Positions 7,923-57,865 of a DNA stretch of 64,000 nt are shown piece by piece. The position numbers were made by a program, and so were the translations under genes. The DNA is from an uncultured Actinomycetes bacterium (GTDB taxonomy: Bacteria; Actinomycetota; Actinomycetes; Streptosporangiales; Streptosporangiaceae): assembly GCA_963813975.1 (NCBI GenBank), contig CAWFAP010000002.1, forward strand, positions 57,876 to 121,875. The letters are read 5' to 3'. Position 1 is the first letter of the stretch. The number at the start of each line of letters is the position of its first letter. A model generated the notes under the pieces. The model had not been told where the DNA came from and did no database searches. It saw only the letters and a list, made by a program, of their open reading frames with translations.

Positions 7923-8193
7923 AGCAGGTTCACCATCCTGACAGTCATGCGGTTTCGGCTGAAGGCAATCCGCGCGCCCTTCGCCCCATCGCTCCCGGAG
8001 ACACCAGGGAATGCCGTCCCGGGTCGCATGCTCCCGGAGCGCCATCTGCCGCCTTCTGTCGGCAGACCGGATGCCGTGTACCGGTCAGAGCGCCAAGTCA
8101 ACCCCACAGCGGGGCTAGGTTGATCACCCACGGTGGGTGAGCCGATCCGGTTCCCCATGGCAGGTACTACCGCTGGCGACTTCCGGAGCTGCC

Positions 8194-9663
8194 TTAGATG
8201 TCGGTGGTGGCTTCGGCTGTGCCGTCTTTGACGGCGTTCTGGAACGCGGTGTAATCGCGTTCGTTCTGGTCGGCGTAGGTTTCGGCGAAGCCGGCGATGG
8301 CCTGGTCGAATGTGGCGGAGCTGCCGAGGTAGGCGGCGAGGGCGATGCGATCTCCGGAGCGGGCGTGCGCCCGGGCGAGGGTCCACCCGCACAGCCGGGC
8401 GTAGACGGTCATGCCCGAGGGGATCATCCGCTCGATCGGCACGGAGAATTTCCAGTCCCGTAGCTGGCGCACGTAAAAGTCGCGGTCGATCCCGTCCGGG
8501 CCAGTGTTGCGGGTCCAGCCGAGGAAGATGTCGCTTTGAGCCTGCATCAGGTGCTGCCCGGCGACGACGCGCTCGCCTTGGTTGTTGTGCTGGCTGCGCC
8601 CGCAGTAGCCGGCCAGGACCGAGGGCTGCGCTTCCTTGGCTTGCAGGAACAAGGGCTCTACACCATCGCAGGCGTCCATCAGCAGCACCCAGGCGCGGGT
8701 GCCGACGCTGCCGACCCCGACGACCTTGCGGGCCATCTGGACCAGCGTGAATTGCTTCAGCAGGTGGCGCCGGTCGGACTGCAGGCTGCGCCGGTATTTG
8801 GCTAGCACGGCGCGCAGCTGCTCGTAAATCGCGTCGGCCTGCGCGTCGGCGAAGACTTCTTCGACCGGGACGATCATCGGAGGGTCGCTGATGATCCGCC
8901 GCTGCCCGCCGACCCTGGTGGTGAGCTTGCGCAGCGCCTGCATGCTGTCGCGGGTATGCGCCTTGGCCAGCTGCGCCTGGGCGGCCTTGAACCCCTTCGC
9001 CTTGATCTGCGATCTGAACTCGCCGAGGGCCGGCTCGATGTCCAGGTGGGCGTACCACACGTCCAGGAAGGGCTGCTGTGCGAAGCCGCGCATCGTCGTG
9101 CGGTAACTCTCGGCCGCCGCGAGGGCGATCTTGCGGCGGGCTTTGTCGGGGTACCCGTTGTCTCGTCCCGCCACGGCCAGGCTCGCGGCCAGCCGCTTGA
9201 CGTCCCACTCGAACGGGCCGGGCAGGGTCTCGTCGAAGTCGTTGACGTCGAAGACCAGCCGCCGTTCCGGCGACGCGAACGCGCCGAAATTGGACAGGTG
9301 CGCGTCCCCGCACAGCTGCACCTGCAGCCCCGAAGCGGGAGTGCTGGCCAGGTCCGCCGCCATCGGGAGCGCCGCCCCGCGGTAGAACGTGAACGCAGAC
9401 ACCAGCATCCGCCCGTGGCGCACCGGCACCAGTTCCGGTACCCGCGATTCGGCCTGGCCCAGCAGCAGCCCGACCGGATCCCGGGATCCGGTCGGCCGGA
9501 ACTCGGCATGGGCCTCCAGCGGCGCTACCGCCCGGGCGTCCTTGCCCCGGGCCACCCGGTCCTCGCGGCTCAGATGCTCTGCCGCAGCGGCACGGGCCGG
9601 ACCCCGCCTAGATGCCCGGGCACCAGACCTTCCAGCCGCGGCACGATCAGCCGTCACTGTCAT
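8194..9663 (-). CDS. DUF2252 domain-containing protein
   Basis: The characteristic block is present: FYRGAALPMAADL...QLCGDAHLSNFG...VFDVNDFDETLPGPFEWDVKRLAAS. The ATG at 9663 was chosen. Confidence 0.85.
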   Translation of the reverse strand: MTVTADRAAAGRSGARASRRGPARAAAAEHLSREDRVARGKDARAVAPLEAHAEFRPTGSRDPVGLLLGQAESRVPELVPVRHGRMLVSAFTFYRGAALPMAADLASTPASGLQVQLCGDAHLSNFGAFASPERRLVFDVNDFDETLPGPFEWDVKRLAASLAVAGRDNGYPDKARRKIALAAAESYRTTMRGFAQQPFLDVWYAHLDIEPALGEFRSQIKAKGFKAAQAQLAKAHTRDSMQALRKLTTRVGGQRRIISDPPMIVPVEEVFADAQADAIYEQLRAVLAKYRRSLQSDRRHLLKQFTLVQMARKVVGVGSVGTRAWVLLMDACDGVEPLFLQAKEAQPSVLAGYCGRSQHNNQGERVVAGQHLMQAQSDIFLGWTRNTGPDGIDRDFYVRQLRDWKFSVPIERMIPSGMTVYARLCGWTLARAHARSGDRIALAAYLGSSATFDQAIAGFAETYADQNERDYTAFQNAVKDGTAEATTDI

Positions 9664-9862
9664 GACCGCTCCCTCCGGGGCCACAGGGGCGTGATGCCGC
9701 CAGCCGGTACGGACCACGGATCGCTCCCCGATGCTCGTATCAGGCAAGCAGGGCCACTCAAGCGCAGGCATCCCCCCGCACGGGTGACACACGCATTCGC
9801 GGGACGGCGGGTAATCGGGCGGTCGGACCGTGACCTAGGATCTCACCGCTCCTTGAAGGCTG

Positions 9863-13751: not shown

Positions 13752-14264
13752 CTACCCGACCTGGACCGGAGGCGGTGAGTCGAGCGGGCGGAGTTCGTCG
13801 GCATAGCAGACCGACGCGCGGCGCAGCACGCCAGCGTCATCGATGGTGTACTGACCGAGCCGCCATAGCGGGGGTGAGTACGCGTGCAGGGAGATGGTCT
13901 GCTCAGCCTCACCGGTGAGCCGGTGAATATGGTCAGGCCCGAAGGAGAACGAGCAGCCTGCGGCGACGGCCGTCTGCACATGGACCCCCCCGATGCGGGG
14001 GTTGGACTCCATGAGCGCGCCCCGCACCACGCGGACCGCTCCGCAGGAGACGTCGTGGTCGTGCCAGCCTGTGTCGTTGCCGGGAGACCAGCAGATAAGC
14101 CAGACGTCTACGTACTCGTCTCGGTGGATCGAGGCGTAGTGCCGCCGTCCGCCGGCGTAGGCAACCTGGTCGCTCCATATATCCGGAGAGCCGGCCAGGT
14201 TCCCGACAAGCTCAGCCAGTTCGCGCTGGTCGAGACACCGGGCGGGTAGCGTGGAAATGGTCAT
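13752..14264 (-). CDS. cysteine dioxygenase type I-like cupin
   Basis: The cupin metal site WHDHD....GA.RV.RG and the PDHIHRL motif are present. The size (170 aa) fits bacterial CDO homologues. Confidence 0.8.
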   Translation of the reverse strand: MTISTLPARCLDQRELAELVGNLAGSPDIWSDQVAYAGGRRHYASIHRDEYVDVWLICWSPGNDTGWHDHDVSCGAVRVVRGALMESNPRIGGVHVQTAVAAGCSFSFGPDHIHRLTGEAEQTISLHAYSPPLWRLGQYTIDDAGVLRRASVCYADELRPLDSPPPVQVG

Positions 14265-15219
14265 GGCGGTGCTTCTCTCCTTGCTGCGGGACGGTCAGAT
14301 CCTGGCTTCGGAGCAGGCGGTCACCCTGAAGCAGCCGGGCCGGGTTGGTCACGCGGATCGCGCGGCGGGCAGCCTCGCCGAGGCCGGGATCGGGGTGCGG
14401 CTGCGCGTACGGCCGGTCCGAGCCGAATACGAGCATGTCAACGCCGAGCACACGAAGTACCGAGTCCACTGCGCGGTTGCCGTAGCTGGACGTTTCGGCG
14501 AACATGCCCGGATCGACAACGCCCCGCGCCAGCGGGTCCTCACCGCCGCGGGCAGCGAGCCGCTCGCCGTGCAGCGGCCCGAGACCGGCCAGCGCAGTGA
14601 AGCAGACCCGTAGCCGCGGGTACGCCGGCCGGCCGTAGGCGCGGAACGCGAACCATGCCGCATGGAGCTGCTGGACATAGGGGACAAGAGCGGGCCACCA
14701 CGCCGGGCCGGCCGCCGTCGCCCCAGCCGCGGGCCCGGGGTGGATGAAGAGCGGGAGGTCCCGCTCGGCCAGGACGTCGAGCAGCGGGCTGCACCTGCGG
14801 TAGCCGGACTCGTCGGCGACTGCGGTGGCCGGCAGCTGGAGCCCGGCGAACCCGCGGTCGAGCTGCCTGGCCAGGCCAGGCCCGTCGATCGCCGTCAGGC
14901 AGGCCGCGGCCCAGCCGCCGAACGGGGAGCCCATTCCCGTGACCCCGTCGTGGTAAGCGTCGAGGAGTGGCCCGGCCTCCCCGGGCGCCAGGTACTCGAT
15001 GCCGAGCGGGCTTGACAGGCCGACGATAACGAGATCAGCCCCGTCGCGGGCTGCTTGTGCGGCACGCCGTCCGATGTCGTGATCCACCGGATTCACGGTG
15101 AAGGGCGGTTCACCGGAGGTGAGCAGCGTCCAGCCATCCAGCCGCGGCGGCTGTGATCGCCGGCGCAACTCCTCGACGAGCACGTCCGGCCAGACGTGCT
15201 GATGGATGTTGACGTGCAC
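14212..15219 (-). CDS. amidohydrolase-2 (ACMSD-like) family metal-dependent hydrolase
   Basis: The N-terminus is HVNIHQHVWP (HxH metal motif), with FIHPG and VFGSDRPY further on. Its 3' end overlaps the cupin gene start by about 50 nt. Confidence 0.8.
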   Translation of the reverse strand: MHVNIHQHVWPDVLVEELRRRSQPPRLDGWTLLTSGEPPFTVNPVDHDIGRRAAQAARDGADLVIVGLSSPLGIEYLAPGEAGPLLDAYHDGVTGMGSPFGGWAAACLTAIDGPGLARQLDRGFAGLQLPATAVADESGYRRCSPLLDVLAERDLPLFIHPGPAAGATAAGPAWWPALVPYVQQLHAAWFAFRAYGRPAYPRLRVCFTALAGLGPLHGERLAARGGEDPLARGVVDPGMFAETSSYGNRAVDSVLRVLGVDMLVFGSDRPYAQPHPDPGLGEAARRAIRVTNPARLLQGDRLLRSQDLTVPQQGEKHRHDHFHATRPVSRPARTG

Positions 15220-15303
15220 AGTGCTCCTCTGCCGGTGCCTGGGCTGATCTCATGGCCGGGCCAGCTGCGAGCGGGGCCGGGCCTGGCTTTACTGATCCGG
15301 TTC

Positions 15304-15344
15304 ACTGAAGCGGTTCAGTTACACGTTTCAGTGAACCGCTTCAG
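15304..15344. promoter_or_regulatory. two LacI-type palindromic operator candidates
   Basis: The sites are ACTGAAGCGGTTCAGT (15304-15319) and CAGTGAACCGCTTCAGT (15328-15344). Each is a TGAA..CG..TTCA-type palindrome, and they are mutually inverted. They lie between the amidohydrolase operon and the divergent LacI gene. Confidence 0.5.
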
Positions 15345-15486
15345 TAGTGGCAGCGTCAAGGCCTGGCCGCCTGCGGGCCCGCTGAGCACGGAATGTGCCG
15401 TTAGGCTTGTGCGCGGCGTGGCGGGCTGGCACGGTGGCCGCGGCGGCTAGGCTGGTAGAGGCGGGCAAATCCTAGGTTGGGAAACG

Positions 15487-16497
15487 GTGCCCCAGCGACC
15501 CAAGCGCGCGACGATCCGCGAGGTGGCAGAGGTGACGGGGTTGTCGCCTGCCGCTGTCTCCTACGCCCTGCGGGGCATCCAGACGTCTGAGGAAACTCAG
15601 GAGCGGGTGCGCGTCGCCGCTGCCGAGCTTGGCTATAACGTTGACCGCATCGCGCGCGCCCTGGCCAGCGGCCGGACCGGCACGGTAGGACTGCTGTTCG
15701 GTTCGCTGGAGGATCTGTGGCAGCAGCTGCTCGGTGTCGGCATAGGCCGCGCGCTGCTGGCCCGTGATCATTACGCCCTTCTCGTGGACGCCGCGGGCGA
15801 CCCCGAACGGCAGTTGCTTCTTGCCCGCCAGCTCCGCGACCAGCGGGTGGACGGTCTCATCGTCCATCCACTCGATCCATCCGATGAGAGATGGCCGCAG
15901 CTGGCGGAGAGCCTGCCCATGGTGTCGATCGGCGACGCGCTGCGCGGGCGGGCCGCTGGCGAGGTGGTGTTCGACAACCGCTCCGGGGTCACACTTGCCC
16001 TGGAGCATTTGCACAAGCTCGGCCACCGGCGGATCGGCGTGCTGACCCCGACTCAGCCAAGCACTCCGGACCGCCCGTCCGATATTCATGTCACCGCCGA
16101 GGCTGAGCGGCTCGGCCTCGACGTGAGCATCATCAGCTCGCCATCCGCGCTCACGGCAGCAACCGACGTGGCCCATGAGGTGCTGTCGGCAGCAGGCCGG
16201 CCAACGGCACTGTTCTGCTTCGCCGACTCCATCGCCTACGGCGCCTACGCGGCCGCCAGTGAACTCGGCCTGCGCATCCCGGACGAGGTATCGATCTCCG
16301 GCTACGACAATCACCCGATGTCTGCGCTGCTGACACCAGCGCTCACCACGATGGACTGGAATGTCGATGGAATCGTCCGGGCCGCCGTCCGGCTTATCCT
16401 GGCCGCTATCGAGGGGAAGCCTTACCGCCGCCGCACCGTCCAGCCACCGCGCCCGCGTGAGCGCGGCTCCACCGGGCCGCCCGGGACGCGGGCGTAA
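15487..16497 (+). CDS. LacI-family transcriptional regulator
   Basis: The N-terminal HTH is ATIREVAEVTGLSPAAVSYALRG, followed by a periplasmic-binding-protein-like sugar-binding fold. Confidence 0.9.
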   Translation: MPQRPKRATIREVAEVTGLSPAAVSYALRGIQTSEETQERVRVAAAELGYNVDRIARALASGRTGTVGLLFGSLEDLWQQLLGVGIGRALLARDHYALLVDAAGDPERQLLLARQLRDQRVDGLIVHPLDPSDERWPQLAESLPMVSIGDALRGRAAGEVVFDNRSGVTLALEHLHKLGHRRIGVLTPTQPSTPDRPSDIHVTAEAERLGLDVSIISSPSALTAATDVAHEVLSAAGRPTALFCFADSIAYGAYAAASELGLRIPDEVSISGYDNHPMSALLTPALTTMDWNVDGIVRAAVRLILAAIEGKPYRRRTVQPPRPRERGSTGPPGTRA

Positions 16498-16550
16498 CCA
16501 AGCGGGGGCCGCCGCGGATCAGCTTGAGTTGATAGCCGGCGACGCCACCC

Positions 16551-17936
16551 TTAGCGGTATCCCCCGCATTCCTGGCCGCCGGCGCGGCGGCACGGGCACC
16601 CATCGGAACACTTCGCCGGGCAGCCCTGGTCACCGTGGCAGCCGGGCAGCAGGATGGCACCAACGCCCGGGATGGCCTGGGCCCTCGCCTTGGCGAGCAG
16701 TGCGGCGGCCGCCTGCTGGCCGTTCTCCCCGGTGCGGGACATCCGCGCGGCGATGAGCCCGGTCACGACCGGAGTCGAGAAGGACGTGCCACTCCACTTG
16801 GCCATGCCGTAGAACTTCCTCTTCTCGCCTTTATACGGCCGGACATGGCATTTATATGTGCCCGTGGCATAGGCGTTGATGAGGTCCCGGCCCGGCGCAT
16901 ACACATCGACCCACCCGCCGTGATTGCTGAATGAGGCCCGGCTCCGCCAATCACCGGCGAGCGCGCCGACCGAGACCACCTCGGCGAAGGCTGCCGGCCA
17001 GCTCGGCCGCCGGGAACCGCTGTTACCCGCCGCGACGACGCAGACCCCACCCTTGTACTGACCGAGCAGCTTAAGCCAGGCCTCGAAGGCGACCAGCGGA
17101 AGATCAGCCCTGGTTGGCGCGGCGATCGTCAGGTGGAAGATGTCCACGCCCAAGCTGAGCGCCGCGACGAGCCGGGGCACCAGATCTGATTCCAGCGTGC
17201 TGCCCGCGATCGCGAAAGCATTTGTCACGATGATGTCCGCGCCGGGTGCCAGGCATCGCGTCACGCCGGCGACGAACGTGCCATGTGCGGTGTAGGGCGG
17301 GATCGGGTCCCGGCTGTCCCCGGAGTCCAGGTCATTCGCATCACCTTGCCGGACCCCGGCCAGCCATGGGTGGCCGTGCGCCGGGCTGGCCAGCAGCCCG
17401 GTGTCGGCCAGGTAGATCAGTACCCCGGCACCGCCGTTGTCCCGGCACACCGAGGGGAAAGGCTCGGTCTTGTCGTACACCTCCTCAGGTTCCGTGGCCG
17501 GGCAGCCACCCGTGTTGCCTGCGACGGTCAGGACGTGATCCGGCGTCACTATTCCGCTGCCGAGATCCTGGTCGACCCGGTCCACTGCGTCGGGCACGGC
17601 GAGTTCCCGGCCCTTCCGCGGTGGACCGAGGGTGACCCGGACCACGCCCGCGATGACCCGCCGGATCCGCCCGCTCTCGCGCAGGCGGGCCTCAGGGGGC
17701 TGCTCGAGGATCTCCAGCACGCGGGCGAGGTACTGATCACGGACCAGGATCTGGTGAGTGGCGTACAGGTAGTCGAGCCGGTGATCGCGGTGGTCAACGG
17801 CAACACCGATCTCGGTCCCCGTCTTGCTCGACTCGCCTGAGCGGGCAAAGGCGCCGACTATAACCTCAACCTCATCGGCGATCGCGGGTTCGAGTTCTTC
17901 TCTCCAGTTACCTGCGTCGGTCACGGTTCCCCCCAA
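16551..17936 (-). CDS. S8-family (subtilisin-like) serine peptidase, no signal peptide, Cys-rich C-terminal tail
   Basis: The catalytic motifs are LADTGLL (Asp), AHGTFVAGV (His), AAGNSG and WSGTSFSTPVV (Ser). A non-catalytic N-terminal region of about 190 aa lacks any hydrophobic leader. The tail is CHGDQGCPAKCSDGCPC...EC. Confidence 0.9.
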   Translation of the reverse strand: MGGTVTDAGNWREELEPAIADEVEVIVGAFARSGESSKTGTEIGVAVDHRDHRLDYLYATHQILVRDQYLARVLEILEQPPEARLRESGRIRRVIAGVVRVTLGPPRKGRELAVPDAVDRVDQDLGSGIVTPDHVLTVAGNTGGCPATEPEEVYDKTEPFPSVCRDNGGAGVLIYLADTGLLASPAHGHPWLAGVRQGDANDLDSGDSRDPIPPYTAHGTFVAGVTRCLAPGADIIVTNAFAIAGSTLESDLVPRLVAALSLGVDIFHLTIAAPTRADLPLVAFEAWLKLLGQYKGGVCVVAAGNSGSRRPSWPAAFAEVVSVGALAGDWRSRASFSNHGGWVDVYAPGRDLINAYATGTYKCHVRPYKGEKRKFYGMAKWSGTSFSTPVVTGLIAARMSRTGENGQQAAAALLAKARAQAIPGVGAILLPGCHGDQGCPAKCSDGCPCRRAGGQECGGYR

Positions 17937-18176
17937 ATTCCGAGATTCTGGCTATGCCAATGACCGGATCTAAGGCAGGCCGGTAGCGCAGGACGCGAAC
18001 GCACCCGCGGCCCCGACGCCTGTTCGGAGCAATCGGCGAGCTGCGTGATACGTCCCGGCCGGGAAAGCTTTCGCCCTGCGGCCCCGGTTACTGCCCGTGC
18101 AATGCTATTAACAGAACGTGGAAAAGGTCGATAAAAGTCTGGCATGCCTTACGGGGATATTCAATAGACCAGGTGG

Positions 18177-20834
18177 ATGCGAAGACCTAATATCGGCTTT
18201 ATGGGGGGAGCCGTTGCGACTGGATCCGGTCAGCGGGCTGTAGAGGATTTGCTGCCCCTGGCCTTGTCTCGTCCTCACGAAGCACTAGCCAGGGCGCGTG
18301 CCGTTCTGGCTGGGCGGCCTGGCCCGTATGCGGCATCAGTGGCCCATCAGGCCGCCGGAATTGCTTTGCGCGATACCGGTGACGTCAACGCGGGCGTCCG
18401 TGAGTTGCGCGCCGCGCTGCGCCTGGCCCGCCGGACCAGTTCCACCGAACGCGAGGCTGATGTGCTGGCCACACTGGGACTCGCACTTGCCTATGCACGC
18501 CGGACCACGGCCGGGCTCGCCGCATTCGACCAGGCATTGCACCTGTCCAGCGGCGTTCTGGCCGGGCGGGTACTGTACCGGCGCGCCGTGGCGCTGTGGC
18601 GGCTCGGCCGGTATGCCGCGGCTCTCGACGACCTCCGCCGCGCGGCCGACGTACTGCAGCGGGCCAACGATCCAGTTTGGATGTCTCGTACTTTAAACGC
18701 CCGCGGGCTGGTTTACCTGGCCGTCGGGTCGCCGCATCGCGCAGATGCCGATTTTGCGGCTGCCGGGCGCCTGTGGGCCGAAACCAGCCAGGAGCTGGAG
18801 TCAATCTATACAGTGGAGAACCGCGCGCTTAGTGCTTTCTCCTCAGGAGATCTTCCCGCAGCGCTCGCATTTATTGATGAAGCTGCCGCCCGCTACCGGC
18901 CGCTGAATGTGCCGACGCCATCCCTCAGTGTCGATCGCTGTGCGGTCTTGCTGGCCGCCGGGCTGGTCGGGGATGCGCTGGCCGAGGCGGATGCCGCGGT
19001 CCGTGACATCGAGCAGAGAGAGGGCCAGGCCGACTGGAAGGCCGAACTGCTGCTGGTGGCGGCCAAGTGCGCGCTGGCCGCAGCGCAGCCGCAGGCCGCC
19101 CTCGACCGGGCACGGGCCGCCTACCGCCTCTTCCGGTTTCAGCAGAGTGCCTGGTGGCAAGCCCACGCCGGGCTCGTTCTGGTCCAGGCGCGTTATGCGG
19201 CCGAGCCAGTGTCAGCCCAGTTGCTCCGCGCGGCGATGCGGGCGGCCGCCCGGCTGACGGAGCTCGGTTCCGGCGAGGCAGCGCAGGCGCACCTGCTGGC
19301 CGGGCGGGTGGCACTGGATCTGGGCCGGCGCGATGACGCAGACCGTCATCTCATCGCCGCCGCACGCAGCCGGCGGCGCGGCCCGCCGATGTCGCGGGCG
19401 ACCGGCTGGCTCAGCGAAGCGCTGCGGGCCGAGGCCGCGGCCAACCCGCGCCGCCTGCTGGCCGCCTGCCGCCGGGGGCTTGCGGTCCTGGACGAGCATC
19501 GGTTCACCCTGGGCGCGTCGGAGCTGCGGGCACAGGCCACCGCGCACGGCGCCGAACTGGCCGTGCTGGCCCAGCGCCATGCCGCGCACGCCCACCAGCC
19601 GCGGCTCTTGCTCGCCTGGAGTGAACGCTGGCGGGCCACCGCCCTGGCGGTCCCCCCGGTGCGCCCCCCCGCCGATGCGCAACTCGGCGCCCGCCTGGCC
19701 GCGCTGCGCCAGGTAACCGGCGAACTCGAGGAGGCGCGGCGCAAAGGCGTGCCGCCGGTAGCACTGGGCCGGGAACAGCGACGGCTCGAAAGCATGGTGC
19801 GCGCCGGTGCGCTGCGGGCCCGGGGTAGCGCCGACGCCGCGCAGATAACTGTCAATATCGGGGAGCTGCTCAGCGCGCTCGGCCGTGGCCAGCTCATCGA
19901 GATCGTCGATGTGGACGGCATCCTGCACGTACTGGCCTGCGGGGCGGGGCGAGTACGGCAGTTCATGGCGGGCCGTACCGAGGATGCCGTCCGGGCTGCC
20001 GACCTCGCCCGTTTTGCCCTGCGCCGCCTGGCCCGCAGCCGGCCGGGGGCCGACCTAGACAGCACGCTGGCCATCCTGAAGGCGGCCGGGCCGCAGCTGC
20101 AGGACGCGCTCCTGGGCCCGGCCGCCCAGCAGCTCGGCGACCAGCCCGTAGTCATCGTCCCGCCCGGCAAATTTCACTCGATCCCGTGGGCGCTGCTTCC
20201 CGCGCTGGGCGACCGGGTGTTCAGTGTCGCTCCCTCCGCGGGCGCCTGGATGCGGGCGCAGGCCGCCCCGCCGCCGGGACGCCGCCAGGTCACGCTAGCC
20301 CGCGGGCCGGGCCTGGTCACTGACGGCGCCGAGGTACCCCTGGTGGCGCAGTTGTATGACGACGTCACAGTCCTGTCGGGTGAGGACGCCACTGCGCGGC
20401 GGGTGCTGTCCGCCCTCGACGGAACCTGGCTGGCCCACGTGGCCGCGCATGGCAGCTTCCGCGCCGACAGCCCACTGTTCTCCTCGTTGCGCATGCATGA
20501 CGGGCCGCTGACCGTCTATGACTTCGAGCAGCTGCATCGCGCGCCCTACCGGCTGATCCTGTCCAGCTGTGACTCCGGCATCATGGCTCCGGCCGGGGCT
20601 AACGAGCTCCTCGGCCTGGTGAGCAGCCTGCTGCCGCTGGGCACGGCCGGGATCATCGCCAGTGTGGTCCCGCTGAACGACTTCGCCACGGTACCCCTCA
20701 TGGTCGGCTTGCACCGCTACCTGCGCATGGGCCATACGCTCGCCGAGGCGATGCGCGACGTGCGGTGCGGGCTCAGCGGAGACCCCATCCAGCGCGGGAC
20801 CGCGCTGTCCCTGACGCCACTGGGCGCCGGCTAA
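18177..20834 (+). CDS. TPR-repeat / CHAT-domain (caspase-like) protein
   Basis: About 550 aa of Ala/Leu/Arg-rich helical repeats are followed by a C-terminal CHAT region. That region carries the His/Cys dyad context LAHVAAHGSF and RLILSSCDSG. Confidence 0.9.
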   Translation: MRRPNIGFMGGAVATGSGQRAVEDLLPLALSRPHEALARARAVLAGRPGPYAASVAHQAAGIALRDTGDVNAGVRELRAALRLARRTSSTEREADVLATLGLALAYARRTTAGLAAFDQALHLSSGVLAGRVLYRRAVALWRLGRYAAALDDLRRAADVLQRANDPVWMSRTLNARGLVYLAVGSPHRADADFAAAGRLWAETSQELESIYTVENRALSAFSSGDLPAALAFIDEAAARYRPLNVPTPSLSVDRCAVLLAAGLVGDALAEADAAVRDIEQREGQADWKAELLLVAAKCALAAAQPQAALDRARAAYRLFRFQQSAWWQAHAGLVLVQARYAAEPVSAQLLRAAMRAAARLTELGSGEAAQAHLLAGRVALDLGRRDDADRHLIAAARSRRRGPPMSRATGWLSEALRAEAAANPRRLLAACRRGLAVLDEHRFTLGASELRAQATAHGAELAVLAQRHAAHAHQPRLLLAWSERWRATALAVPPVRPPADAQLGARLAALRQVTGELEEARRKGVPPVALGREQRRLESMVRAGALRARGSADAAQITVNIGELLSALGRGQLIEIVDVDGILHVLACGAGRVRQFMAGRTEDAVRAADLARFALRRLARSRPGADLDSTLAILKAAGPQLQDALLGPAAQQLGDQPVVIVPPGKFHSIPWALLPALGDRVFSVAPSAGAWMRAQAAPPPGRRQVTLARGPGLVTDGAEVPLVAQLYDDVTVLSGEDATARRVLSALDGTWLAHVAAHGSFRADSPLFSSLRMHDGPLTVYDFEQLHRAPYRLILSSCDSGIMAPAGANELLGLVSSLLPLGTAGIIASVVPLNDFATVPLMVGLHRYLRMGHTLAEAMRDVRCGLSGDPIQRGTALSLTPLGAG

Positions 20835-21220
20835 TGCAGGCGAAGGCCCAGCGCGGGACCTGGCCAGCCGGCCCGGGTGGTTTCCCGCCTCCCCCCGCGG
20901 CGGCGGCGCCCGGGCCGGGCCGGGTGGCCGGCCAGCGCTGCACCGGCCCTCACCCAGAACGGAGCAGTGCGGTCAGTCCCTGATACAAGATCTGGCCGCG
21001 GGATGTCTCAACCGCGCACTGGCGGACCGCGGCAAGGACACGATGCCGCCATGATTTCCGGGTCGCTGGCGTATCAGCGGCCAGGGCCGTCGCTCCTTCT
21101 CATAAGAGACGCTACTACCCGTGTGCTGGGCTGGCCCCTGGTCCCGTCAGTTGCAGGACGCGGCGCCGATGTGCGCATGTGGAGTCACAGGTGCGCGCCG
21201 CACGTTACGGAGACGTGATT

Positions 21221-22042
21221 ATGCCTGTACAGAATGGCGGCATGCCGCATCTGGTCGTGCTGGCACCGGACTCTGACCGCGGCCGGCGAATCCCGCTTAA
21301 TAGGGACTACCTGGTAGTCGGGCGCGAGCCGACCTGCGACGTGCGGTTCGATGACCCATGCGTCAGCCGCGCCCACGCCGCGCTGCGGCGGCGCGGGAGT
21401 GCGGTCTATGTGGAAGACCTCGGCTCCTCCGCGGGCACGTTCGTCAACGGAGCGACCGCGGCCAGCGCCTGCGAGCTGCACTCTGGCGACCTGCTGAGGT
21501 TCGCCTCAGTGACAGCGCGGCTGGAATCCAGCGGGGCCAGAAGCGACGAGACAATTACCATGCGCGAAACGCCGGCCGGGGCCGGCGTGGTCCATCACAT
21601 CGACGAGCAACGTGCGGACGTCATCAATTACGCAGAGCACCAGTACAACTCGCACGTTCAGTACGTTAACCAGCAGCGCGAGAACTTCCTCCGCGAGGTC
21701 GCCGCGACCAAGACAAAGGCGCGGTGGCTCGCCTGGACGGGCTTCTTGATGTTCGTGGCCGGCTTCGGCATCTTCGCCGCAGCCGACGTCAGCTTCATCA
21801 AAGGAATTACCGACTCCATCCAGAACGGGGGTCAGGTATCGCCGACGACCAGCCCCTTCGGACGGGAGGTCGGGGGCATTCCCGTCGGGCTGGCCGGCTG
21901 GGCCTTGGCCGCGCTGGGCATGATGCTCCTCATCGTCGGGATCGTGCTGCATGTGGTCGCCACCTCGCGGCGCCGACGGGCCTACCGCGACTTCCCGGTG
22001 TCCCCGCCCTGGCCGGATGCCGCGTCCATGAGAAGAGAGTGA
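21221..22042 (+). CDS. FHA-domain protein with C-terminal transmembrane segments
   Basis: The FHA signature is LVVGREPTCDVRFDDPCVSRAHAAL....VYVEDLGSSAGTFVNG. Hydrophobic segments are WLAWTGFLMFVAGFGIFAA and GLAGWALAALGMMLLIVGIVLHVV. The ATG at 21221 has GGAG upstream. Confidence 0.85.
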   Translation: MPVQNGGMPHLVVLAPDSDRGRRIPLNRDYLVVGREPTCDVRFDDPCVSRAHAALRRRGSAVYVEDLGSSAGTFVNGATAASACELHSGDLLRFASVTARLESSGARSDETITMRETPAGAGVVHHIDEQRADVINYAEHQYNSHVQYVNQQRENFLREVAATKTKARWLAWTGFLMFVAGFGIFAAADVSFIKGITDSIQNGGQVSPTTSPFGREVGGIPVGLAGWALAALGMMLLIVGIVLHVVATSRRRRAYRDFPVSPPWPDAASMRRE

Positions 22043-22043
22043 C

Positions 22044-22433
22044 ATGGAGATCCATGTGAAGAACCAGACCGCTGGCGTCATCACCTACGTCGACGGCAAC
22101 CAGGTGATCTACGGCGGCCTCCACGGCATCGTCGTCACCGACGAAGACGCATGCCGGGCGGTGCACGAGCTCCGGGAGGCGCTGGCGAGCGTAGCCCTAG
22201 ACCGAACCGGGGCGGCCGAGGCGCGAGCCCAGGTCGCGGAGATCGACGCGGCAGTGCGCACACCTCAGCCAGACAAGCGCCGGGCCGCCGGCCCGCTCAA
22301 ACGGCTCACCGAACTGCTTGCCCGCGCCGGATCGCTGACCACGGCAAGCGCAGCCCTGATCGGCCCGCTGCAAATCCTTGCTACCTGGCTGGGTGCTCAC
22401 GGAACAGCCATCCTCAGCCTGCTTCCCCTGTAA
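22044..22433 (+). CDS. hypothetical 129-aa protein coupled to the FHA gene
   Basis: It starts 1 nt after the FHA stop. The N-terminal motif is NQTAGVITYVDGNQVIYGGLHG, followed by a helical middle and a hydrophobic/amphipathic tail. Third-position bias is good. Confidence 0.6.
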   Translation: MEIHVKNQTAGVITYVDGNQVIYGGLHGIVVTDEDACRAVHELREALASVALDRTGAAEARAQVAEIDAAVRTPQPDKRRAAGPLKRLTELLARAGSLTTASAALIGPLQILATWLGAHGTAILSLLPL

Positions 22434-22613
22434 GCCATCTCCGGTGCTTCCCGGGCCAAAGGCCGTATCGATTTGAGAGCGATCTGCGCGTCGCGGGTCG
22501 GGCGGTGACCAGGGTCCCGGTTCCCGGCGTCGCAGCCAGGCCTTCCCTCACTGAGGTAGAGGCAGACCGCCTGGCCTGAGCAGATGTGGACGCATGAGCA
22601 CGAGGAGGCAGCG

Positions 22614-23102
22614 ATGGCAAGGGTCCGGCTGCGAGACATCGTGGCTGCAGGGGACCGCGCGGCGGTCATGGGCCTGCGCCGTGGCCCCGGCCAGGGCCAG
22701 TACCTCAACTCCATGGAGGAGATCTTCGCCGAGGTCCGCGAGGAGCAGCGCGCCATGCCCCACCCCTGGGCGGTGCACGACGCCGGGACCGGCGCGCTGG
22801 TCGGCTTCGCGATGATCAGCGACAACGTCCCGCAGCCGATGGACGACGACCTCGTCGGCCCGTACTACCTGTGGAAGCTGCTCATCGACCGTCGGTTCCA
22901 GCGCCGTGGCTACGGCGCGGCCACGCTCGACGCGGTCGTGGACTACCTCGCGGCGCGGCCCGGCGCCGAAGTGCTCTACACCAGCTGCGCGGACGGCCCC
23001 GGCTCGCCGCGCGGGTTCTACCTCAGCTACGGGTTCACCGACACGGGCCGAGTCATGTGGGGCGAGAACGTCCTCGCGCTCGATCTGGCGCCGTGCAGTT
23101 GA
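22614..23102 (+). CDS. GNAT-family N-acetyltransferase
   Basis: The acetyl-CoA motif is IDRRFQRRGYGAATLDAVV, and the C-terminus is FYLSYGFTDTG. Confidence 0.8.
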   Translation: MARVRLRDIVAAGDRAAVMGLRRGPGQGQYLNSMEEIFAEVREEQRAMPHPWAVHDAGTGALVGFAMISDNVPQPMDDDLVGPYYLWKLLIDRRFQRRGYGAATLDAVVDYLAARPGAEVLYTSCADGPGSPRGFYLSYGFTDTGRVMWGENVLALDLAPCS

Positions 23103-23164
23103 CCGGGGATCGCTCGATCACCTCCGCTCCCGTGGACCGGGCAGATCACGCTCATCTGCGCGCC

Positions 23165-23416
23165 TCAGTTGCACCGAACAGTCGCTGGTATACAGATTGG
23201 CGGCGCTGCGCGTTGGCGGCACTGCGCGCTCACCCACAGCTGGACCGGCGCGGTCGTGACCAGCTCGCGAGCGCTTGGCGGGAGGTACGAGCGGACGTCG
23301 GTCGTGCCCGGCGTCACGAACTGACCCCGCGGGCGCTGGCCCAGGCGAAGGGAGATCTCACGTTCGCGAGGTCCCTTGACCGGTTTCCGTTCCTGAGCCA
23401 GTAGCGCGGTGTCCAT
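23165..23416 (-). CDS. hypothetical protein or gene fragment
   Basis: Third-position G/C bias is strong in the central part (GQFVTPGTTDVRSYLPPSARELVTTAPVQLWVSAQ). No family was recognised. Confidence 0.3.
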   Translation of the reverse strand: MDTALLAQERKPVKGPREREISLRLGQRPRGQFVTPGTTDVRSYLPPSARELVTTAPVQLWVSAQCRQRAAPPICIPATVRCN

Positions 23417-23550
23417 GAACGCCGTAAGGGGGCTCCCAGGTCAGGCAGGTTTTCGCCTACCCATCCGACGGCTGTTACAGATGCCGGGATCCACGAGCAC
23501 GCGACGCGTCCGGGTGCGCCCTGGCGGACGCCCGACGCGGTAAGCCAGCC

Positions 23551-23588
23551 TGGTGCTGGTGCTGGTGCTGGTGCTGGTGCTGGTGCTG
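23551..23588. repeat. hexanucleotide microsatellite (TGGTGC)x6
   Basis: Read directly from the sequence: tggtgc repeated six times, plus tg. Confidence 0.95.
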
Positions 23589-24247
23589 ACCTCGCGTCAG
23601 CCTGCCCACAGTTGCTGTTTGGCGTCACCTGCGCCTCACCGCGAGGGCACCAGCACCAGGCTCGCCGCCAGCCGGGCCAGTGGGCGGCGCGGCCGCGCCG
23701 GGCAGTTTTCATGTCCGCCAGCGCGCAGCTTCATGCCCATCTCCGGCAGTTCTCCTGACCCGTCAAGGAGGGGCCGCTGTCAATCCTGGCCTGGCCGGCA
23801 TTTGGATGCCGCCATCAAGCACGGACAGCCGCGCGACCTTCATCCATTTAAGGTGATGCCGTGCCGCGAGCGGTGTGGTGGCATCCGGCTGTACGGCGCG
23901 GAGCCGACGCGCCGACCGGGGTTAACCGTGCGTCGCGGCACCGAATGCCGCCGCGGCCGGGATGACGCCCGGGGTCGAGCGGCGAGCGCAGTGGGCCCGA
24001 GGCGGGCACCCTCGGCGAGGGAGGATTCAGGCATGGCGAGTGAGGCAGCAGGAGGAACCCGGACCGGCGCCAGCGACCAGGCGCCGATCGCCCCGCTGGC
24101 CTGGTGGTCGCCCAGCGGGGCGGAGTCTCAGACGGGAGCGGCAGGTGAGGGCGGCAGGTCATGATGCGGCGGCGCACAGAGGGATTGTGAGAGTACGCGC
24201 GGGGTGCGCTGTGGGTACTTCCCGGGATCTCGCTGATAGCTGCGCTC

Positions 24248-25474
24248 GTGCTGGGTGCAGTCCTGGCCAAGGTTCATGTGGCCGCCACCGCGCCTGTGCA
24301 CCGTCTGCTGTTTCAGGGAACGGCCGACGACGCGCGGACGTTGCTGATCGGGATCACCAGCACGGTCATCACAGTTATCGCGCTTGTCCTCGGGCTGACA
24401 TTGGTTGCCCTCCAGCTATCGTCGTCGCAATATTCGCCACGAGTGCTCCGAAATTTTCTCCGCGACTGGCAGAACCAGGTCTTCTTGTCGGTGATCGTCG
24501 CGACGTTCGCGTACTCGGCGGCCGGGCTCTACACGGTCGGTGTATCGGCGGGGAAACGAACTTCCTCCTACCCGCAGCTTGCCGTTACCGTGGCGATTGT
24601 CCTGCTTTTCGTGAGCCTCGGTACCCTGATCTTCTTCCTGGACCACCTCGCTCATTCGATCCAGATCGACCGGCTGATGGCGGTCATCGAGCGGGCCACG
24701 ATGCAGGTCATCGCGGACGAAGCGCGGCGCGCCTCCGCCCGGACCGGATACGGCCAGGTCCCCGAGCCTCCAGCATGGGCGGTGGCGATTCGCGCCCGCA
24801 AGGATGGCTATGTGCAGACGATCCATCCCGAACTGCTGGCCCCCCTGGCCGAGCGGCTTGAGGTGACTGTGTGCATCGTTCCGCAGGTGGGTGACTATGT
24901 CGTGCCCAGTCATCCGATCGCGCACGCCTGGCACCGCTCGATTGACCAGCAGCGGCCGGACCCGCGAGATCTGACTGACACCGTGCACCGCGCGGTCCGG
25001 ATCGGCTTTGAGCGGACGCTGCAGCAGGACATCCGCTTCGGCCTGCGGCAGCTCGTTGACATTGCCCTGCGGGCGCTTTCCCCCGCCGTCAACGACCCTT
25101 ACACCGGGATCCAGGCGATCCAGCGGCTGACCGTCCTGCTCTGCGCGCTGGCACCCACGCCGCTCGGCGACTATGTGATCGCGGGGCAGGAGGGCTCGGC
25201 GGACGTCGTCGTACCCGCACCCTCGTTCAGGGAGTACACCGACCTTGCGTGCGGCCTGATCCGCCGCTACGGCGCCAGTGAACCGACCGTGATGGCCGCG
25301 CTGCTCCGCATGCTGCACGACGTGCAGGTCCTGGTCACCGACCAGGACCTGCTTCAGGTGCTCGCGACGGAGGCGCGCCTCGTCGTCAGCGATGCTGAAC
25401 GCGCCACCGTCCAGCCTGCAGACCTGCGCATGGTGCGAGAGCAGGCAACATCACTTCTGCCTGACGACTCATAG
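24248..25474 (+). CDS. DUF2254-domain membrane protein (N-terminus possibly disrupted by an in-frame TGA)
   Basis: The characteristic block is LLIGITSTVITVIALVLGLTLVALQLSSSQYSPRVLRNF. Upstream in the same frame, ATGATG at 24161 opens MMRRRTEGL, then TGA (24188-24190), then EYARGALWVLPGISLIAAL. Confidence 0.8.
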   Translation: MLGAVLAKVHVAATAPVHRLLFQGTADDARTLLIGITSTVITVIALVLGLTLVALQLSSSQYSPRVLRNFLRDWQNQVFLSVIVATFAYSAAGLYTVGVSAGKRTSSYPQLAVTVAIVLLFVSLGTLIFFLDHLAHSIQIDRLMAVIERATMQVIADEARRASARTGYGQVPEPPAWAVAIRARKDGYVQTIHPELLAPLAERLEVTVCIVPQVGDYVVPSHPIAHAWHRSIDQQRPDPRDLTDTVHRAVRIGFERTLQQDIRFGLRQLVDIALRALSPAVNDPYTGIQAIQRLTVLLCALAPTPLGDYVIAGQEGSADVVVPAPSFREYTDLACGLIRRYGASEPTVMAALLRMLHDVQVLVTDQDLLQVLATEARLVVSDAERATVQPADLRMVREQATSLLPDDS

Positions 25475-25513
25475 CACAACGGACCTGCCCGGGCACCGCG
25501 ACGTGCTGGCACC

Positions 25514-26914
25514 TCAGGGACGGATGAGAGCGGCGAGCAGGGCTTGCAGCTTCAACTGGGTTTCCGCCAGCTCGGTCTCGGGCCGGGATCCGGCCACCAC
25601 GCCGACACCGGCGTACATCGAGGCATGGTCGCCGTCTACGTGAGCTGACCTGAGCCCGATGGCCCAGCTCCCGTCACCGCGGGCATCCATCCAGCCCACC
25701 GGGCCGGCGTACCGGCCGCGGTCAAAGCCCTCGACCTCGCCGATATAGGCCACCGCCTCGCCGGTGGGCGTGCCGCCCACCGCGGGTGTGGGGTGCACCC
25801 TCGCCACGAGCTGGAGGGCGCTGGGCACACGGAGCCCGGGATGCGCCGGGCCGCCCCCCGGCGACTCTGACCGGCTCCGGGCATGGCCGGAGTAGGGGCT
25901 GTCACCCGTCCCGGCCGGCGCTTCCGGAACGGCGGATAGCACTCCGCTGAGCCGGGTGGCGAGATGGGACACGTTGCGCAACTCGAGCACTGTGGGCTTG
26001 TCGGGTATGTCCAGGCTCTCGCAGACAGGACCCAGGGTGCGACGGAGACCTTCGATGACGTAGGCGTGCTCTCTGCGTTCCTTGGGTGAGGCGAGCAGTC
26101 CGGCGATGAGCGCTTCGTCGGTAGCCAGATCGCCACTGCGGCCAATAGTGCCGGCCAGGGGGTGACTGGCGACGTGCGCACCCCGGCGCTCGATCAGCAG
26201 TTCGGGGCTAGCGCCGAGGAAGCCATCGACCCTGAAGACCATGCACGTCGGGTACAGGGCGAGCAGCCGGGACAGGACATCCGAGGTGACGAACGGGCGA
26301 TTGGCCGTCACGTCGATCTGGCGGGCCAGGACGACCTTGCCCAGCGCTCCGTCGTCGATGCGGGCGACGGCGCCGGCTACCAGGTCCTCCCAGGCCTCGT
26401 GGTCCATCACCGACGTCAGGGTGAACTGGCTCGGCGCGGGCCGGGGATCGGCGTACCCGCCGAGGGCATCGGCGGCCATCCGGTCAGCCAGGCGCGCGGT
26501 GGTGCCGGTGCCGGGGCGCGCGGTGGTGGTGATCCATGCTTCGCCGTCGCGTCGGCCGATCACCACGCGAGGGACCACGAGCACCCCAGGTGCGTCCCGC
26601 ACGAACGGGAGCGCGCCGAGAGCTACTGCCCCGGTTCCCGGCCCGGTCACGTCATCGCCGCGTTGGATAGCAGCCAGGCGGCCCGCCACCCCGGCCACCG
26701 CAGCGGCGTCGGTGAGACCGCGGGGAAGCTCGATGCGCAGGGCGACGCCGCGCCCAGCCAAGCCGAAGCCCTCGTGCTGCCACAGGAAGCCGTCGCGGCC
26801 AGCAGCGGCGAGCAAATCGATGTCCGCGGCATCGATGCCGGTTCCCGGGCCGGCGAGCCGGGCCGTCGTGGCCGCGAGGGGCGCCCCGTTCGGCGTAGTT
26901 CTGGCCATGCTCAT
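25514..26914 (-). CDS. isochorismate synthase (MenF/EntC/DhbC family)
   Basis: Chorismate-binding motifs are present: FLGASPELL, SHPLAGT, KERREH, HPTPAVGGTP and FDRGRYAGPVGW. The ATG at 26914 (MSMARTT) was chosen. Confidence 0.85.
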   Translation of the reverse strand: MSMARTTPNGAPLAATTARLAGPGTGIDAADIDLLAAAGRDGFLWQHEGFGLAGRGVALRIELPRGLTDAAAVAGVAGRLAAIQRGDDVTGPGTGAVALGALPFVRDAPGVLVVPRVVIGRRDGEAWITTTARPGTGTTARLADRMAADALGGYADPRPAPSQFTLTSVMDHEAWEDLVAGAVARIDDGALGKVVLARQIDVTANRPFVTSDVLSRLLALYPTCMVFRVDGFLGASPELLIERRGAHVASHPLAGTIGRSGDLATDEALIAGLLASPKERREHAYVIEGLRRTLGPVCESLDIPDKPTVLELRNVSHLATRLSGVLSAVPEAPAGTGDSPYSGHARSRSESPGGGPAHPGLRVPSALQLVARVHPTPAVGGTPTGEAVAYIGEVEGFDRGRYAGPVGWMDARGDGSWAIGLRSAHVDGDHASMYAGVGVVAGSRPETELAETQLKLQALLAALIRP

Positions 26915-26948
26915 GGGGCGCAACCTCAGGATGTGGTGGTCGGGCTCG

Positions 26949-27272
26949 TCACGGCCGCCCGCAGGGGCACGGCCTACCAGGATAGCCAGGCGGGGAACCT
27001 GCTCGCGGGCTGGGCCAGCGGTATGGCCTTCGCGCGGGGGGGCGTTCTTCCGCGGTGGTTCCGCCCCAGATGCCGTCCTGCCTGGTTTCCACGGCATAGG
27101 CCAGGCATGGCGCACGTACGGCGCAGCGGCCGCAGACCGCCTTGGCCGCCTTGATCTGCCGCGAAGCCGGACCCGTCGCCGCAATCGGAAAGAAGAGTTC
27201 CGGATCCTCGGCCCGGCAGGCGCCCTGCGACATCCAGTCGGAGGAATCCCGGCCCGCCTCTAGTCGCAGCAT
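26949..27272 (-). CDS. WhiB-family (Wbl) Fe-S transcriptional regulator
   Basis: The Wbl pattern is C-x-EDPELFFP ... AK.VC..C.VR..CL.YA ... GIWGGTT..ER. A Pro/Arg-rich tail follows. An alternative start is the ATG at 27233. Confidence 0.85.
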   Translation of the reverse strand: MLRLEAGRDSSDWMSQGACRAEDPELFFPIAATGPASRQIKAAKAVCGRCAVRAPCLAYAVETRQDGIWGGTTAEERPPARRPYRWPSPRAGSPPGYPGRPCPCGRP

Positions 27273-46079: not shown

Positions 46080-46604
46080 ATGACCCGGGCCCAGCCCCGC
46101 CTGGCTGGGCTTGGCCAGCGGCGCTTGCTGGATCCGGGTGTGGTGCTGGTAGCCACGATCCGCCGGGACGGCACGCCCCGGCTCAGCCCCGTCGAGCCGT
46201 TCGTGCTCGAGGGCATCTTGTGGCTGTCCATGCTCTGGGGCTCCAGGAAGGCCGCCGACCTGCTGCGCGACCCGCGCATCCTGGTGCACAGCACCGTCAC
46301 CGGCCGGGATGGCGGGGAGGGCGAGTTCAAGATCCGCGGCATCGCGCGGGCGGAGGGCGACCGCGATGCCCAGCACCGGTACGCCAGCGCGGTGGCGGCC
46401 AGCCTGGGATGGAGACCGGAGCCTGGCCGGTTCCACCTGTTCGCGGTCGGCATCCAGCAGGTGACCTTCATCCGCTATGACGACGCCACCGGGGACCAGC
46501 ACGTCGCCACGTGGCCACCAGCCTGCGAGTACATCCGCCGCGGCACCTCCGCCACCAGCGTGGGAGACCCGGAGCCGGTCAGCAGCATCCTGGTCCCCGG
46601 CTAA
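46080..46604 (+). CDS. pyridoxamine 5'-phosphate oxidase-family (FMN/F420-binding split-barrel) protein
   Basis: The pattern is LATIRRDGTPRLSPVEP......L....GSRKAADLLRDPR. The start is uncertain (ATG at 46080). Confidence 0.75.
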   Translation: MTRAQPRLAGLGQRRLLDPGVVLVATIRRDGTPRLSPVEPFVLEGILWLSMLWGSRKAADLLRDPRILVHSTVTGRDGGEGEFKIRGIARAEGDRDAQHRYASAVAASLGWRPEPGRFHLFAVGIQQVTFIRYDDATGDQHVATWPPACEYIRRGTSATSVGDPEPVSSILVPG

Positions 46605-46843
46605 CCGCCAAGGCGCGGCGCGCCAACCGCGTGAGCCCAGTCCCGGGGGTTGTCCCCGGTGAGGGAGGTGAGGGGGCCGTTGAACCAGTGACCGCGCGGG
46701 CACCGGATTTTCGCGCTGCGCAGGGGTCCCTCAGTTGACTCCACGGTGTACTCGTACTCCACCTCAGCCGGAAGCCCGCACCGTGTCGTCCCCCGGCTAT
46801 CCATATACGCCGGGCAGTCCAGCAGCATCACAGTGGTTTCCAT
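46601..46843 (-). CDS. hypothetical small Cys/His (zinc-ribbon-like) protein
   Basis: The sequence is METTVMLLDCPAYMDSRGTTRCGLPAEV...IRCPRGHWF, with a CP..C ... CPRGH spacing. Confidence 0.5.
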   Translation of the reverse strand: METTVMLLDCPAYMDSRGTTRCGLPAEVEYEYTVESTEGPLRSAKIRCPRGHWFNGPLTSLTGDNPRDWAHAVGAPRLGG

Positions 46844-47042
46844 CGACAGCCCCCGTTCATGGTGTGGCCCGGCCGGACGGCCGGGACGGGGCAATCGCCC
46901 CGGGCGGATCGTTCAGCCGGCTCGCCACCGGCACCCGACTGCAGGCCGCCCCGGCAGGAGAGAGCACCGGGCCGCGCCGCTGATACACCGGGCCGGGCGG
47001 CGGAACCCGCGGCGGCCGGATGTGGGGGCCTATCCTCGTGAT

Positions 47043-57854: not shown

Positions 57855-57865
57855 GCCGCCTCGGC

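Follow-up and report, generated by a model that had tools for sequence, protein, structure and literature searches.

A subtilase and a TPR-CHAT protease from an uncultured actinobacterium as a candidate protease arm of an ECF54-type sigma factor circuit, adjoined by a separate FHA cassette with a similar promoter-like motif

The sequence analyzed here, referred to as the window, comprises 64,000 nt from an uncultured Actinomycetes bacterium of the Streptosporangiaceae (assembly GCA_963813975.1, contig CAWFAP010000002.1, positions 57,876 to 121,875) with a G+C content of 70%. Between positions 16551 and 22433, it carries four adjoining genes encoding an S8 subtilase, a TPR-CHAT protease, an FHA-domain membrane protein, and a protein of 129 amino acids (aa), all of which are backed as coding by the G+C content at third codon positions. 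A first-pass annotation, made from the letters of this stretch, had read them as one protease-based system. Comparison with related loci revealed two separate modules, one of which is accompanied in relatives by a sigma factor of the extracytoplasmic function (ECF) type. The genes and modules are as follows:

16551..17936, minus strand: S8 subtilase gene, 461 aa (Pfam Peptidase_S8 at residues 169-404, E 8e-18)
18177..20834, plus strand: TPR-CHAT protease gene, 885 aa (Pfam CHAT at residues 636-866, E 1e-24, plus TPR matches)
21179..22042, plus strand: gene for the FHA-domain protein (Pfam FHA, E 1e-18; two C-terminal transmembrane (TM) helices by hydropathy)
22044..22433, plus strand: gene for the 129-aa partner with a hydrophobic C-terminal tail, 1 nt after the FHA open reading frame (ORF)
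16552-21016: module 1, the divergent pair of S8 and TPR-CHAT
21030-~22460, plus strand: module 2, the cassette of the FHA protein with two TM helices (FHA-2TM) and the 129-aa protein

Alignment of S8 homologues led to a set of 79 loci, each representing a different species, in actinobacterial metagenome-assembled genomes, many of them labelled Streptosporangiaceae. The CHAT gene was the divergent neighbour of the S8 gene in all of these species-level loci (79/79), and genes for the FHA and 129-aa proteins were found near S8 or CHAT in none of the 79, even at an E value of 0.1. The reverse comparison, which covered 83 loci with the FHA cassette (three long contigs and 80 metagenome loci), revealed no S8 or CHAT gene nearby (0/83). 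The four genes of the window are thus two modules and not one system. Since they do not co-localise outside the genome of the window, the four-gene system of the first-pass annotation is not supported, while the pairing of S8 with CHAT, which was part of that proposal, stands. For annotation, this means that the four adjoining genes should not be taken as one system.

Clustering of the neighbouring ORFs in the S8/CHAT loci revealed two more conserved genes, one for a sigma factor of the ECF type, about 200 aa long (Sigma70_r2), and one for a 155-aa protein, which adjoins or overlaps the sigma gene in relatives. Both were present in 50 of 54 well-covered loci, with the 155-aa gene alone in two and neither gene in another two. 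This gene pair is found to either side of the proteases and in either orientation, and that its linkage to them survives rearrangement argues for function. As 17 of 37 members of the 155-aa family matched the carboxypeptidase regulatory-like domain CarboxypepD_reg (PF13620), the set of neighbours equals the published context of sigma group ECF54 (Huang et al. 2015; Casas-Pastor et al. 2021), in which subtilase, CHAT, and 'carboxypeptidase' proteins are conserved and for which proteolytic control of the sigma factor was proposed but never tested (PMC8999054). The statement of the first-pass annotation that no named system has this composition was therefore wrong for the protease pair. Taken together, gene context supports a functional link between S8 and TPR-CHAT. 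Like the published context, the loci of relatives have subtilase, CHAT, and a CarboxypepD_reg-like protein beside an ECF sigma gene without a canonical anti-sigma factor; unlike it, the window has subtilase and CHAT but neither the sigma factor nor the CarboxypepD_reg-like protein. In the 2021 reclassification, ECF54 was listed among the groups without a clear regulator, and a '4Fe-4S protein' was mentioned near it (PMC7826278).

The S8-CHAT intergenic regions share a bipartite motif, GTATCA-N16(17)-gCTCCGTA, which points toward S8 and has a median distance of 118 nt to the start of that gene. Toward S8 it was detected in 69 of 73 intergenic regions, toward CHAT in none of the 73. A position weight matrix (PWM) trained solely on S8-upstream sites yielded, at a score of at least 14, 137 matches in 1.4 Mb of loci versus 4 in shuffled sequence. 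The motif was also located upstream of the sigma gene (about 40 of 61 loci), and a motif before the own sigma gene is the usual sign of ECF autoregulation. Furthermore, it was found upstream of the FHA cassette in 37 of 49 unique regions, as compared with a background rate of 0.0057 per 260 nt, at 59-152 nt (mostly 107-152 nt) before the start and wherever the cassette sits. With its two blocks, fixed spacing of 16-17 nt, single orientation, set distance to start codons, and site upstream of an ECF sigma gene, the motif displays the hallmarks of an ECF promoter. Since the FHA cassette carries a motif of the S8 and sigma type, its co-regulation with S8 is plausible on sequence grounds, though the two are not co-inherited. 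Scans for sigma-70 promoters and terminators revealed nothing, nor did an Rfam scan of 16-23.5 kb. In the window, the following copies were found, the three top-scoring PWM matches all lying within the S8/CHAT/FHA locus:

18023..18051, minus strand: S8 copy, GTATCA-N16-CTCCGAA, PWM score 31.0, the best in the 64-kb window, 115 nt upstream of the S8 ORF start
20958..20986, minus strand: back-pointing copy, GTATCAGGGACTGACCGCACTGCTCCGTT, PWM score 21.6, downstream of CHAT and facing its 3' end
21071..21099, plus strand: FHA-cassette copy, GTATCAGCGGCCAGGGCCGTCGCTCCTTC, PWM score 15.6, 150 nt upstream of ATG 21221
46958-46986, minus strand: weaker copy at a gene for a Zn-ribbon-like protein, PWM score 12.6, the fourth best in the window, 143 nt upstream of ATG 46843

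The back-pointing copy shows the same geometry in eight other loci (L008, L012, L016, L019, L033, L037, L067, and L163), the upstream gene whose 3' end it faces being CHAT in most of them. Behind the motif, a conserved stretch of about 100 nt is rich in GC and in palindromes (window 20835-20986). The copy belongs to the ancestral CHAT-sigma intergenic region. Downstream of it, no small ORF with a conserved reading frame was found. The region could give rise to a sigma-dependent antisense or small RNA, or could be a mere bidirectional terminator region.

How the two modules came to adjoin could be followed at the nucleotide level. Positions 16552-20917 match the closest relative, L163, at 90.6% nucleotide identity, and the rest of the window has no match to it; L163 has kept the sigma gene and a 153-aa gene downstream of CHAT. 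In the clade nearest to the window, the order is CHAT, sigma, and 155-aa gene, with two back-to-back motif copies between CHAT and sigma. A second relative, L037, matches 20710-21016, where homology stops. The stretch between 21030 and about 22460 aligns with FHA cassettes that sit in dozens of unrelated contexts, the alignments beginning at 21030-21059. Two features mark the junction:

21004-21009, plus strand: degenerate -35 remnant, GTCTCA, of the sigma-proximal motif, the putative former promoter of the sigma gene
21017-21030: sharp rearrangement breakpoint in the spacer of the former sigma promoter

Since homology ends at 21016 inside the spacer of the sigma promoter and an FHA cassette with its own promoter-like motif begins at 21030, the alignments indicate that the sigma operon was displaced by a rearrangement and replaced by the FHA cassette via a breakpoint within the sigma promoter. 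The cognate sigma factor of this genome would then have to be encoded elsewhere. A gene at 57018-57905 of the window (minus strand) encodes a 295-aa group-3 sigma factor with regions 2, 3, and 4, which is unrelated to the ECF54-like sigma factors. In L163, two genes lie between CHAT and the sigma operon (7987-9740), one for a 213-aa protein of unknown function and one for a 370-aa protein with HTH_31 and Peptidase_M78 domains (ImmA/IrrE-like).

With regard to the single proteins, the description given by the first-pass annotation was largely borne out. For S8, it had proposed a 461-aa peptidase with an intact triad, no signal peptide, and an extra N-terminal domain of roughly 190 aa. The triad D177/H217/S384 as well as N304 showed no variation in an alignment of 66 homologues. 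The top 19-residue hydropathy within the first 40 aa was 0.74, and the hydrophilic N-terminus is kept among homologues from about residue 5, so that neither hydropathy of the first 40 aa nor the homologue alignment revealed a signal peptide as in classical secreted subtilisins. As the N-terminus is both hydrophilic and conserved, the absence of a leader is real and a mis-called start hiding one was ruled out; moreover, the ORF begins at the first start codon after a stop, which makes an in-frame upstream extension impossible. Translation probably begins at GTG 17924, which is preceded by the ribosome-binding site GGGGGGA. The extra domain is present, though the non-catalytic N-region has about 165 aa. 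It comprises a propeptide-like N-domain (about residues 10-136) and a linker (residues 139-163; 17448-17520) of low model confidence that carries an invariant CPATEP; the catalytic domain (about residues 166-430) and a Cys-rich C-terminal tail, LLPxCHG...C.C...GC.C (residues 431-461; 16554-16646), follow. The tail could hold a metal or redox centre, and the CPATEP linker could be where the protein is processed.

The AlphaFold2 (AF2) model of S8 reached a pLDDT of 68.9 overall and 85-97 in the N-domain. Its top Foldseek matches were unautoprocessed pro-subtilisin E, fervidolysin, ProN-Tk-SP, and pro-Tk-subtilisin, with 400+ aligned columns. The resemblance of the N-domain fold to unprocessed pro-subtilisins thus characterizes the extra domain as propeptide-like, and judged from the model, S8 is probably a cytoplasmic zymogen. 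It shares with pro-subtilisins and intracellular subtilisins (e.g., 3whi, 2e1p, 3afg) the S8 fold, the catalytic triad, and the N-terminal propeptide-like domain, but differs from them in its missing signal peptide, a longer N-region with the invariant CPATEP, the Cys-rich tail, and the obligate pairing with TPR-CHAT.

For the 885-aa TPR-CHAT protein, Pfam matches agreed with the predicted TPR and CHAT parts, and the predicted His/Cys dyad was found to be intact, H758 and C798 being invariant in an alignment of 55 homologues. The TPR superhelix spans about residues 20-550. By hydropathy, both the N-terminal part and the TPR region are free of TM segments, the sole hydrophobic stretch (810-833) lying within the CHAT domain, and Pfam revealed no anti-sigma domain. 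In the AF2 model (pLDDT 73.8), the TPR region was confident and the CHAT core poor; Foldseek placed separases on top and the TPR-CHAT anti-sigma factor DdvA (8rot_A) at rank 24, all with low TM scores, so the resemblance offers support for the architecture only. A sequence search of the PDB with CHAT gave nothing relevant and no detectable similarity to Csx29, and a plasmid search yielded nothing but an unrelated fragment of a CHAT gene, located on a plasmid of Streptomyces chartreusis without S8, sigma factor, or motif. The spacer between S8 and CHAT has the 240 bp and the comparatively AT-rich composition noted earlier (GC 0.59 versus 0.70 for the whole window). Its 77 nt adjoining the CHAT start (18100-18176) have a GC of 0.44 and presumably contain the promoter of CHAT itself. 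The start codon of CHAT is directly adjoined or overlapped by the -35 of the S8 motif in one subclade, about L052-L078 (CAT|GTATTA), an arrangement that may lead to mutual interference of both transcription units.

The second module likewise agreed with the earlier prediction of an FHA protein with two TM segments, 386 bp behind CHAT and followed after 1 nt by a 129-aa ORF, as shown by Pfam, hydropathy, and coordinates. The gap of 386 bp applies if the FHA protein begins at ATG 21221, which is probably its start judging from homologues of 273-276 aa. An FHA gene followed by a gene for 129-134 aa, overlapping or a few nt apart, is a conserved unit, which was seen in nearly all FHA loci with enough downstream sequence and recurs in more than 80 other genomic contexts. 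Comparison with NCBIfam revealed, for the locus, only sub-threshold resemblances to mycosin, PrtP, and FhaB, and the 129-aa protein had no family in Pfam or NCBIfam. The short motif that had been noticed in both proteins proved real: xQxAxVIN-x-V-xx-Q is common to residues 141-157 of the FHA protein (21600-21650) and residues 6-22 of the 129-aa protein (22059-22110). Among FHA loci L080-L139, it co-varies between the partners in two subfamilies (NNVDRDQ with NNVDGDQ; HYDER/NYAEH with TYVDG/NYVEG). It could serve both proteins as a site of interaction or cleavage. As homology, the similarity is weak (hhalign probability 6%), and the idea that the 129-aa protein arose by duplication of the FHA protein's C-terminal half found no support past the 22-residue motif.

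Further candidate targets of the promoter-like motif were found outside the two modules. The small Zn-ribbon-like protein encoded at 46601-46986 of the window (minus strand, start ATG 46843) has the pattern CP...CGLPAEV...STEGP...CPRGHWF and no Pfam family. In L022, L024, and L034, its homologues are preceded by a motif copy that diverges from the sigma gene, and others lie near sigma in L030, L041, and L048, which suggests that the gene is a probable dispersed member of the regulon. In addition, strong copies of the motif precede, in three loci, the gene of a protein that has about 385 aa and no Pfam family; its N-terminus is Cys-rich (CCQSPCDP.W...SC) and its centre rich in Gly and Ser:

L010 11505-12824: ~385-aa Cys-rich protein, motif score 24.5
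L021 11545-12874: ~385-aa Cys-rich protein, motif score 23.0
L076 4823-6021: ~385-aa Cys-rich protein, motif score 15.7

Two characterized systems couple a TPR-CHAT protein to an ECF-type sigma factor. In type III-E CRISPR, the TPR-CHAT protease Csx29 cleaves Csx30, the inhibitor of the ECF-like CASP-sigma, and copies of the CASP-sigma motif occur in its own locus (PMC10028731). The module described here resembles this Craspase/CASP system in having a cytoplasmic TPR-CHAT protein with an intact His/Cys dyad that is linked, in relatives, to an ECF-type sigma factor and small partner proteins, but it differs in the second protease S8 and in the lack of detectable sequence similarity to Csx29. 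Neighbour domains included no Cas7-11 (gRAMP), and no CRISPR RNA (crRNA) and no CRISPR or other repeat arrays were found. The activating signal cannot be a target RNA. In DdvA-DdvS, a TPR-CHAT anti-sigma factor controls an ECF sigma factor, DdvA spanning the membrane as one polypeptide that combines an N-terminal, zinc-binding anti-sigma domain with a TPR-CHAT part in the periplasm (PMC11506125). The architecture and its coupling to ECF sigma control are alike, while TPR-CHAT of the window is a separate soluble protein without TM segment or anti-sigma domain.

Among defence systems, no counterpart was found. The earlier observation that neither gasdermin nor CRISPR occurs at the locus holds, as a Pfam scan of ten genes (13752-27184) contained no gasdermin and no resembling cluster was seen among the conserved neighbours of the 79 loci. 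PADLOC gave no matches for the CHAT, FHA, and 129-aa proteins and, for S8, only a 38-residue match to IetS (E 7.5e-4) and a domain-level 'subtilase' match (E 2.5e-8), which do not amount to IetAS with its full-length protease and partner ATPase, so that the expected lack of a known defence system was confirmed apart from weak or partial matches. In the conflict-systems paper of the Aravind group, S8 and FHA occur only in other architectures. Overall, the protease pair is a sigma-orphaned new member of the known ECF54 context, and the FHA cassette is separate from it and linked solely by the promoter-like motif.

We give a probability of about 55% to the reading that module 1 is the protease arm of an ECF54-type sigma circuit whose regulon comprises the motif-sharing units, and hold the direction of cleavage within this circuit with less confidence than that. 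TPR-CHAT would be expressed from its own AT-rich promoter, which is not of the sigma type, and its TPR array would sense a cytoplasmic protein signal, upon which it would cut either the partner of the sigma factor or the sigma factor itself. The 155-aa CarboxypepD_reg-like protein would be the inhibitor or partner. Once freed, the sigma factor would use GTATCA-N16-CTCCGTA promoters to transcribe its own operon along with pro-S8, the FHA-2TM/129-aa cassette, and the Zn-ribbon gene, with S8 acting as feedback or output protease. Because S8 but not CHAT bears the motif, and by analogy with Csx29 and DdvA, we favour TPR-CHAT as the sensor and regulator and S8 and the FHA cassette as sigma-dependent outputs or feedback. 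The data show the gene linkage, the motif distribution, the breakpoint, and the domain and fold assignments, whereas the reading of the motif by the sigma factor, the direction of cleavage, and the nature of the signal are inferred.

The alternative closest to this reading takes S8 and TPR-CHAT as mere outputs of the sigma factor, for instance as stress, developmental, or quality-control proteases, with the 155-aa protein or another factor regulating it. S8 with its motif in 69 of 73 loci is indeed a target in that case, and the authors of the ECF classification pointed out that context cannot separate regulators from targets (PMC7826278). The absence of the motif before CHAT (0/73) nevertheless fits a regulator better than a target, the linkage of both proteases to sigma outlasts several changes of gene order, and experiments place two other TPR-CHAT proteins upstream of ECF sigma factors, so that we regard a pure output role as unlikely. 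Less probable still is a self-contained S8/CHAT pair, e.g., with CHAT activating pro-S8, that is unrelated to the neighbouring sigma factor, the motif being a conventional transcription-factor operator or a functionless inherited sequence. The function of the motif is read from sequence, the flanks of the module differ even at 90.6% nucleotide identity, and the module persists in the window without sigma, all of which would suit such a pair; it is opposed by the ECF-promoter hallmarks of the motif, including its place upstream of the ECF sigma gene, and by its recurrence before unrelated genes in unrelated contexts.

An equally low probability is assigned to the four-gene model, in which physically interacting and co-inherited proteins form one cascade that leads from a signal through proteolysis to a membrane effector and brings about abortive infection or programmed cell death. 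Its genes are adjacent in the window, both proteases are intact and cytoplasmic, the FHA cassette and S8 have a promoter-like motif in common, the co-varying short motif in both cassette proteins could be the place where a protease recognizes or cuts them, and the known TPR-CHAT/ECF systems are defence-related. Against this stand the missing co-localisation in both directions (0/79 and 0/83), the joining of the halves at a rearrangement breakpoint, the PADLOC result with no match for CHAT, FHA, and the small protein and a weak domain-level one for S8, and the identity of the conserved S8/CHAT partners, which are a sigma factor and a CarboxypepD_reg-like protein instead.

Several points weigh against the sigma-circuit reading itself. 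Neither tblastn nor a hidden Markov model built from 56 neighbouring sigma factors detected an ECF54-like sigma gene in the 64-kb window, and the 155-aa gene is missing from it as well, leaving the circuit incomplete here as far as the window shows. The proposed regulon is defined by motif matches alone, and the FHA copy in the window has a moderate score (15.6) and a deviant -10. As the loci come from one actinobacterial clade, part of the upstream conservation could be inherited, yet spacers and flanks diverge. The neighbouring sigma factors carry the ECF54 label by gene context and not by ECF-group models, the AF2 models are moderate (pLDDT 69 and 74) with a poor CHAT core, and the protease substrates are assigned by inference. 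Moreover, neither the promoter motif nor a link to the FHA cassette appears in the accessible ECF54 descriptions, which exclude that of Huang et al. from 2015, reportedly the first definition of the group.

ECF54 belongs to the few ECF groups without a known regulator, and the idea of control by a neighbouring protease dates from 2015. What is added here is a precise candidate promoter, the asymmetry between S8 as putative target and CHAT as non-target, a candidate inhibitor in the CarboxypepD_reg-like protein, and the FHA-2TM cassette and the Zn-ribbon gene as candidate remote members of the regulon. If true, TPR-CHAT control of ECF sigma factors would, together with Craspase and DdvA, be a recurrent design of bacterial signalling, present here in a form that lacks CRISPR and involves a second protease. 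A more speculative extension, which we consider rather improbable, is a CRISPR-independent Craspase-like switch in filamentous actinobacteria, in which soluble TPR-CHAT would free the ECF54 sigma factor by cutting its CarboxypepD_reg-like partner and the sigma factor would turn on the S8 zymogen, the FHA-2TM/129-aa pair, and the Zn-ribbon protein, deciding a cell fate triggered by stress, phage, or development; the co-varying motif would then be the recognition site of a protease.

Two minor observations concern junctions and repeats. At 4595-5315 of L132, a gene for an ECF54-like sigma factor that has about 50% identity to the S8/CHAT neighbours converges on the 129-aa gene of an FHA cassette and truncates it after residue 43, representing a second independent junction between sigma-type and FHA-type modules. 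Finally, a perfect tandem hexamer repeat, (CTGGTG) x 6.5, is located at 23550-23588 of the window between a GNAT gene and a DUF2254 gene.

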